The notes under the pieces: generated by a model
The model's database searches: none
What the model saw: the letters and a program-made list of their open reading frames with translations, nothing else
What the model was told of the DNA's origin: nothing
In this document: one piece after another, positions 1 through 458 of the stretch
Position numbering within the stretch: position 1 is the stretch's first letter
How the letters are laid out: each line of letters opens with the position of its first letter
Position numbers and translations under genes: made by a program
NCBI RefSeq assembly: GCF_003334255.1
Contig: NZ_QOWU01000236.1
Length of the DNA: 458 nt
Strand: one strand, 5' to 3'
DNA from: Escherichia coli
Lineage (GTDB): Bacteria > Pseudomonadota > Gammaproteobacteria > Enterobacterales > Enterobacteriaceae

Positions 1-458
1 CTTCCCAGCTGGCTGTCAGGTTTTGGTGTACCAAACGGCATGTTCTCCTGGTAAATCTGCGCCCCCATGAAGTTTTCGTTCATGGCAAGATTCGCAAACG
101 GACGCAGAATTGTCGGTGCTGCATTTTTCAGCAATGCCCCGGACAGCGTTTCCGACGTCTCACTGCCAATCGGGCTGAATGCCCCCAGGATACCACCGAC
201 AACATTACCGGCAGCACGGGACGCCGTCAGGTCACCAGCAGCCACACCTTCAGAGGTATGCCCGAGCAGGAAGAAAACGTTGTACCCGTAAGGCAGAGGA
301 ATACTCCAGTACTCTCCGGCCCTGCCCCCGAACATCGATTTCATAATGACGAGGTTACGCTCTTTCACATGATACGGCACCTTGTCGTACCAGTTAACCC
401 CGTCATCATCCTCACCCGCCACACTGCGGTTAAGCGAGCCAAGCAGATAACCCGCTCC
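1..458 (-). CDS. Internal fragment of a protein-coding gene (5' and 3' ends both outside the window); hypothetical protein of unassigned function
   Basis: Reverse-complement translation from + position 458 gives 152 sense codons with no stop (codons occupy + 458..3, plus 2 nt of the next codon at + 2..1): GAGYLLGSLNRSVAGEDDDGVNWYDKVPYHVKERNLVIMKSMFGGRAGEYWSIPLPYGYNVFFLLGHTSEGVAAGDLTASRAAGNVVGGILGAFSPIGSETSETLSGALLKNAAPTILRPFANLAMNENFMGAQIYQENMPFGTPKPDSQLG. Third positions are mostly C/G/T with few A-ending codons, and common enterobacterial codons dominate (CTG, GCG, CCG, AAC, GAC, GGT, TTC, TAC). Amino-acid composition is balanced and protein-like. The other two minus frames stop within about 30 codons (TGA and TAA), and + frames 1 and 2 contain several stops. 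The in-register + frame 3 is open but uses rare codons (CGG, CGA, AGG, AGA, ATA) and encodes a Cys/Arg/His-rich peptide, as expected of an antisense strand. No internal ATG has a convincing Shine-Dalgarno, so the true start is probably beyond + position 458. Function was not assigned because no search could be run. Confidence 0.8.

Follow-up and report, generated by a model that had tools for sequence, protein, structure and literature searches.

The 458-nt stretch of Escherichia coli DNA analyzed here (the window) lies inside one gene on the minus strand. Read from nt 458, this strand has 152 sense codons, no stop codon, and a frame that continues past both window ends, just as the sequence-only reading of the window had claimed. 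The peptide is part of WP_000331660.1, a protein of 2,783 aa that is encoded by a gene of 8,352 bp and carries the RefSeq name "LPD38 domain-containing protein." The expectation that the real gene would encode more than 152 aa was thus correct, and so was the claim that it runs opposite to the open reading frame (ORF) in the supplied track, 67..291, which lies within it. The features of the window are as follows.

1..458, minus strand (codons from nt 458 to nt 3): internal fragment of the gene for a giant polyvalent (proposed ejection) protein, residues 2445-2596 of WP_000331660.1
417..458, minus strand: C-terminal half of a conserved Gly/Ala-rich, moderately hydrophobic helix (residues ~2435-2458, ...IALAAVGAGYLLGSLNRSVA), predicted as helix 136-159 of the AlphaFold2 model
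399..416, minus strand: acidic motif GEDDDG, residues 2459-2464
15..395, minus strand: N-terminal ~60% of Pfam LPD38 (window peptide 22-148, model positions 2-112 of 189, E = 1.7e-27)
279..302, minus strand: motif IPLPYGYN, residues 2497-2504
67..291, plus strand: tracked 74-aa ORF, an antisense shadow ORF wholly within the conserved minus-strand gene and not a gene
3..458, plus strand: second stop-free frame, an antisense shadow aligned codon for codon with the real gene

At the DNA level, CEQ27_RS03065, a prophage gene of E. coli O104:H4 that other strains also carry, matches the window with 100% identity, as does phage PhiR5_2. Another 185 phage records, almost all of them Stx converting, are 90 to 96% identical, and Stx phages of the 933W, VT2-Sakai, and phi24B type match at ~96%. 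Matches were found in 426 of 5,426 complete E. coli genomes, where the gene is annotated as "LPD38 domain-containing protein." Extension of the locus, which the sequence-only reading had recommended, gave the full gene and, as its neighbors, a late phage operon: the giant gene comes last in the late (virion) operon, after the genes for the tail fiber and Lom and several small genes. Judged from its sequence, the window is almost certainly internal to the gene for the giant polyvalent protein of a short-tailed lambdoid phage of E. coli of the 933W/phi24B type (Sepvirinae).

The product had initially been left unassigned. In fact, it can be assigned, since Pfam LPD38 (PF18857) is matched and the RefSeq name follows this domain; a homology search with the 152-aa translation, which had also been recommended, returned LPD38 (E = 1.7e-27) together with PHROG 616 (E = 1.8e-102), a family of unknown function that matches the protein end to end. 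It had further been suggested, and flagged as speculation, that the gene encodes an uncharacterized or accessory protein carried as cargo by a phage or mobile element. The phage origin was confirmed, but the gene is not accessory cargo: it belongs to the late/virion operon, the Sp5 orthologue is essential for producing infectious particles (PMC5155283), and the phi24B orthologue is abundant in the virion (bioRxiv 10.64898/2026.04.10.717836). The gene is already known, being annotated in RefSeq and classified in Pfam, with orthologues that have been knocked out (Sp5) and found in virions (phi24B). Among the proteins of the Stx phages that matter most in medicine, its product is the largest, and the interest in the family is real and already recognized.

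O104:H4 genomes have two sites that match the window, a prophage on the ynfF side (100%) and the Stx2a phage copy (95.9%); the identical copy sits in a prophage different from the Stx2a phage of the strain. The prophage with the identical copy ends beside ynfF, and the junction bears a truncated gene for a 4Fe-4S protein, probably ynfG (locus 16144-20000, 19884-19967), which suggests that the prophage inserted into this gene. A few kilobases upstream of the giant gene (locus 7669-16020), the late operon carries two morons, the genes for a Hok/Gef toxin (4268-4408) and an Ail/Lom outer-membrane protein (3296-4033).

Coding strand and antisense frames

The remaining two minus-strand frames of the window contain 5 and 11 stops, respectively. 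Frame 3 of the plus strand (nt 3-458) has none, so that two of the six frames are fully open; the sequence-only reading had seen the minus frame correctly but had overlooked this second one. An open frame of 152 codons in any of the six frames occurred in 1.4% of mononucleotide shuffles and in 4.7% of first-order Markov sequences of 458 nt and 55% GC. Such a frame is thus only moderately unusual in a window of this size and composition, and openness alone is weak evidence, a point that applies to any stop-free frame in a window of ~450 nt. Therefore, the case for the minus frame rests on homology and on the substitution pattern.

The second claim about the frames, that the minus frame is missing from the ORF track and that 67..291 is the only ORF listed, was accurate. 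ORF 67..291 starts with ATG and is the sole long complete plus-strand ORF of the window. However, the track excludes ORFs that extend past the source ends, and the minus frame is absent because it does so. Its absence is an artifact of track construction and not an annotation gap. When a track leaves out ORFs truncated at the ends, the antisense shadow ORFs inside long genes will be systematically brought to the fore.

The coding potential of the two strands, whose comparison had been advised, was assessed from the substitution pattern in the window and seven phage homologues with 92.6 to 95.9% identity. Codon position 3 of the minus frame accounts for 39 of the 48 variable sites, and the pN/pS of this frame is 0.07. 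Stop codons in the minus frame had been named as one observation that would tell against it, but it is open in all eight sequences. The minus frame codes for protein and is subject to strong purifying selection.

The same comparison bears on the alternative that the plus strand codes, with ORF 67..291 or frame +3 specifying a real small protein that possibly overlaps the big gene. Frame +3 has no stop in the window, ORF 67..291 begins with ATG, and antisense ORFs of this kind are annotated in old GenBank records. Frame +3, however, has a pN/pS of 1.9 and is closed by a stop at codon 73 in four of the seven homologues, and its openness here solely reflects the absence of TTA, CTA, and TCA codons from the sense frame within the window; over the whole gene, the corresponding antisense frame has 36 stops. 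ORF 67..291 is interrupted by an internal stop in three of the seven homologues, and no Shine-Dalgarno sequence or other ribosome-binding site was found upstream of it. Its low pN/pS (0.10) is uninformative because the wobble positions of this ORF, in plus frame 1, coincide with those of the real gene. Moreover, neither plus-strand ORF is annotated in current RefSeq records. The stops in the homologues and the substitution pattern identify both plus-strand frames as shadow ORFs, and plus-strand coding is effectively refuted, the probability left to it being negligible.

Antisense frames of this gene have entered databases before. ORF-30c (BAC67677.1; AP004402 138-401, Stx2 converting phage I) is the +3 shadow frame read from the ATG at 258, and in phi24B (HM208303) the antisense "hypothetical proteins" vb_24B_50c, vb_24B_51c, and vb_24B_52c lie inside the giant gene (32192-32515, 34667-35047, and 35398-35769). 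All four look like over-annotations, and current RefSeq has dropped them. An Rfam search at a permissive E value returned no RNA element in the window, and neither direct nor inverted repeats were found there.

Architecture of the giant protein

Pfam recognizes four domains in the 2,783-aa protein: LPD5 (residues 1047-1190), LPD1 (1351-1430), MuF_C (1740-1829), and LPD38 (2466-2671), the last covering model positions 2-189 of 189 with an E value of 3.9e-46. In addition, the NCBIfam model for the zincin-like CLCA_X family matches residues 1172-1427 with 154.5 bits, which is below its curated cutoff of 260; this match spans HEWFH at residue 1274, one of two HExxH motifs in the protein, the other being HEIIH at residue 1541. 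None of the Pfam peptidase families matched the protein. Methyltransferase and helicase domains were absent from Pfam scans of all 2,783 residues and from the NCBIfam results. The AAA+ ATPase domain (COG1483) reported for Sp5 ORF80 (PMC5155283) was not recovered by Pfam or NCBIfam on the O104:H4 orthologue.

The domains LPD1 to LPD40 were defined as parts of "polyvalent proteins," which are delivered along with the DNA of phages and conjugative elements; LPD38 is among those restricted to phage-type proteins, and the functions of the LPDs were called elusive (Iyer et al. 2017, PMC5512222). The protein described here has the makeup of a polyvalent protein, with several distinct effector or LPD domains in one polypeptide, and its LPD38 occurs in a phage setting in every respect covered: the late operon context, the giant relatives, and the viral proteins that share its predicted fold.

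The direct orthologues of the gene are phi24B gp47/vb_24B_48, Sp5 (VT2-Sakai) ORF80/ECs1242, and the 933W equivalent, each the giant late protein of a Stx-converting member of the Sepvirinae. Like it, they close the late operon and have the LPD5-LPD1-MuF_C-LPD38 architecture. The phi24B gene vb_24B_48 is 95.6% identical to the window at the nucleotide level, and the full-length proteins are 89.6% identical; the protein studied here is slightly shorter (2,783 aa) than its orthologues in the Stx-converting Sepvirinae (2,793 to 2,811 aa).

The MuF_C match at residues 1740-1829 has no HExxH motif, whereas the phi24B preprint assigns metallopeptidase activity to "MuF-C." Iyer et al. classed MuF-C as an RNase-like PBECR domain (PMC5512222). 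In view of both points, the inference of peptidoglycan degradation in that preprint looks shaky.

A search with the window peptide (E ≤ 1e-3 among 1.84 billion) returned 2,992 cluster representatives, nearly all of them giants of 1,000 to 4,900 aa. The full protein was then compared by BLASTP with the top 142 matches, and the 106 relatives among them with a length of ≥1,500 aa were treated as full length. Residues ~1900-2783 are common to all 106, whereas when the N-terminal 1,900 residues are divided into bins of 100, each bin is common to only 2 to 37% of them. Furthermore, the equivalent of the window ends at a nearly constant distance from the C terminus in these 106 relatives (median, 186 aa; interquartile range, 185 to 187 aa). 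This pattern indicates that Pfam LPD38 covers just a portion of a constant module of ~880 C-terminal residues to which variable N-terminal domains are joined. The module, with LPD38 within it, is present at a fixed C-terminal distance in every full-length relative, and the N-terminal ~1,900 residues (here LPD5, the zincin-like HExxH region, LPD1, and MuF-C) vary.

The same layout is seen in other LPD38-bearing polyvalent proteins (Iyer, Burroughs, Anand, de Souza, and Aravind 2017), such as gp69 of the Bcep22-like phage JC1 and PTXU04_00025, in which LPD38 likewise lies near the C terminus of a giant multidomain phage protein encoded with the virion genes. The N-terminal sets differ, with a lytic transglycosylase, methylase, helicase, or RelA/SpoT domain in those proteins in place of the LPD5, zincin, LPD1, and MuF-C found here.

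Within the module, an alignment of 36 sequences that reached down to 28% identity revealed several conserved motifs. In the acidic GEDDDG motif, which recurs in the relatives, D2461 is invariant and D2463 nearly so; in IPLPYGYN, P2498 and P2500 are invariant and G2502 and N2504 nearly so. Further motifs with invariant or nearly invariant residues are VKERN, FSP, PTI, and NENF. The Gly/Ala-rich helix precedes the GEDDDG motif. Its highest Kyte-Doolittle value over 19 residues is 1.22 here, with a family median of 1.32, and in 46% of 125 relatives no other 19-mer of the protein is more hydrophobic; however, only 14% reach 1.6. The helix is thus below the usual transmembrane threshold in 86% of the relatives, and membrane insertion is unsupported.

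An AlphaFold2 model of residues 2300-2783 was of moderate quality (pLDDT, 78; pTM, 0.64). Helices dominate the predicted structure, and a small beta-hairpin (strands 180-184 and 194-199 of the model; pLDDT, ~90) lies just before IPLPYGYN. Foldseek found no relative of the model in the PDB (best match, E = 0.14), and PDB sequence searches with the single sequence and with a profile gave no match. In BFVD, the only fold matches were other LPD38-bearing viral polyvalent proteins. By these sequence and model comparisons, the C-terminal module appears to have no relative among solved structures.

Role of the giant protein

Two orthologues have been studied experimentally. Deletion of Sp5 ORF80/ECs1242 (2,793 aa) left excision, packaging, and heads normal, yet the mutant gave no plaques or lysogens and was not bound by a tail-fiber antibody (Mondal et al. 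2016, PMC5155283). In phi24B, gp47 (2,811 aa; LPD5, LPD1, LPD38, and MuF-C) is abundant in the virion proteome and absent from the symmetric cryo-EM map, and the authors proposed that it is an encapsidated ejection protein (bioRxiv 10.64898/2026.04.10.717836, 2026); they deduced this role from its being present in the proteome and absent from the map. The phi24B preparation also included ~36,000 empty particles. The giant gene is coding and conserved, and its product is an essential component of the virions of a short-tailed phage. The best explanation, which is very probably right, is that the window is a fragment of the gene for this giant polyvalent Stx phage protein and that the protein would act by an ejection mechanism.

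According to this mechanism, the giant protein would be packaged within the capsid and, at infection, expelled via the tail. Its constant C-terminal module would serve as a structural and translocation chassis that mediates incorporation into the virion, takes part in tail completion, and contributes to a conduit across the envelope, and the variable N-terminal domains would be the delivered effectors, possibly freed by the putative zincin-like metallopeptidase of the protein itself. We lean slightly toward such a division of labor, with the C-terminal module responsible for incorporation, the tail, and envelope crossing and the N-terminal enzymes acting as delivered effectors.

In its proposed working principle, the giant protein resembles the podovirus ejection proteins T7 gp14/15/16, P22 gp7/16/20, and the N4 virion RNA polymerase (vRNAP), which are packaged in the capsid, invisible in symmetric maps, and expelled to span the envelope, to function in the cell, or both; the likeness is one of proposed principle only, and no sequence or fold similarity to characterized ejection proteins of the T7 gp14-16 and P22 gp7, -16, and -20 type was detected here. 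The N4 vRNAP is likewise described as a giant ejected protein of ~3,500 aa (PMC12633501).

A purely morphogenetic function is another way to read the Sp5 phenotype, which the authors themselves took as a tail assembly defect (PMC5155283). The giant protein would then be a tail assembly or head completion factor, a scaffold or plug, that is inactive in the infected cell. The DNA-filled heads of the ORF80 deletion mutant, normal but unbound by the tail-fiber antibody (PMC5155283), would be expected from such a factor, and the gene does lie among tail genes. But the orthologue is abundant in mature phi24B virions and missing from the ordered tail and capsid density, which is typical of internal ejection proteins, and enzyme-like N-terminal domains (the zincin HExxH region and MuF-C/PBECR) make little sense for a pure assembly factor. 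Nor are the morphogenetic and ejection roles mutually exclusive. In the T7 and P22 systems, podovirus internal core proteins can also be required for stable tail attachment. We therefore consider an exclusively morphogenetic role unlikely.

Since polyvalent proteins were viewed as arrays of counterdefense effectors by Iyer et al. (2017, PMC5512222), the LPD38 region might itself be a delivered antidefense effector, for example, in antirestriction, rather than a structural or translocation module. Indeed, PHROG 10089, "DarB-like antirestriction," matches residues 2344-2671 with an E value of 1.6e-28, and DarB of phage P1 is likewise a giant antirestriction protein packaged in the virion. The match, however, falls at profile positions 4263-4538 of 4,647, which is the C-terminal LPD38 tail that the proteins have in common and lies outside the methylase and helicase parts of DarB, and unlike DarB, the protein described here has no methyltransferase or helicase domain. 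Furthermore, effector domains are variable in such proteins, whereas the LPD38 module is universal and positionally fixed, and the Sp5 orthologue is essential even on a laboratory host. Universality and essentiality fit a core mechanical role better than a host-specific antidefense function, and we regard an antidefense function of the LPD38 region as very unlikely. PADLOC was also run; it gave no match, and a reading of the protein as part of a defense system was rejected.

The ejection mechanism can be taken one step further. The ~880-residue module could act as a delivery chassis, universal and fixed in position, whose fold resembles no solved structure and that carries hypervariable N-terminal effector arrays through short tails, a phage counterpart of the polymorphic-toxin architecture in which the helix, GEDDDG, and IPLPYGYN would form the core that engages the envelope. 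We put this forward tentatively and think it rather doubtful as a whole: the data back a modular architecture without relatives among solved structures, but they do not support the mechanism itself. What mechanism and fold the LPD38 module has are questions for the entire family, and they have already been posed in the phi24B preprint. In another LPD38 protein, PTXU04_00025, CRISPRi-ART has revealed a requirement for efficient infection (bioRxiv 10.1101/2023.09.18.558157).
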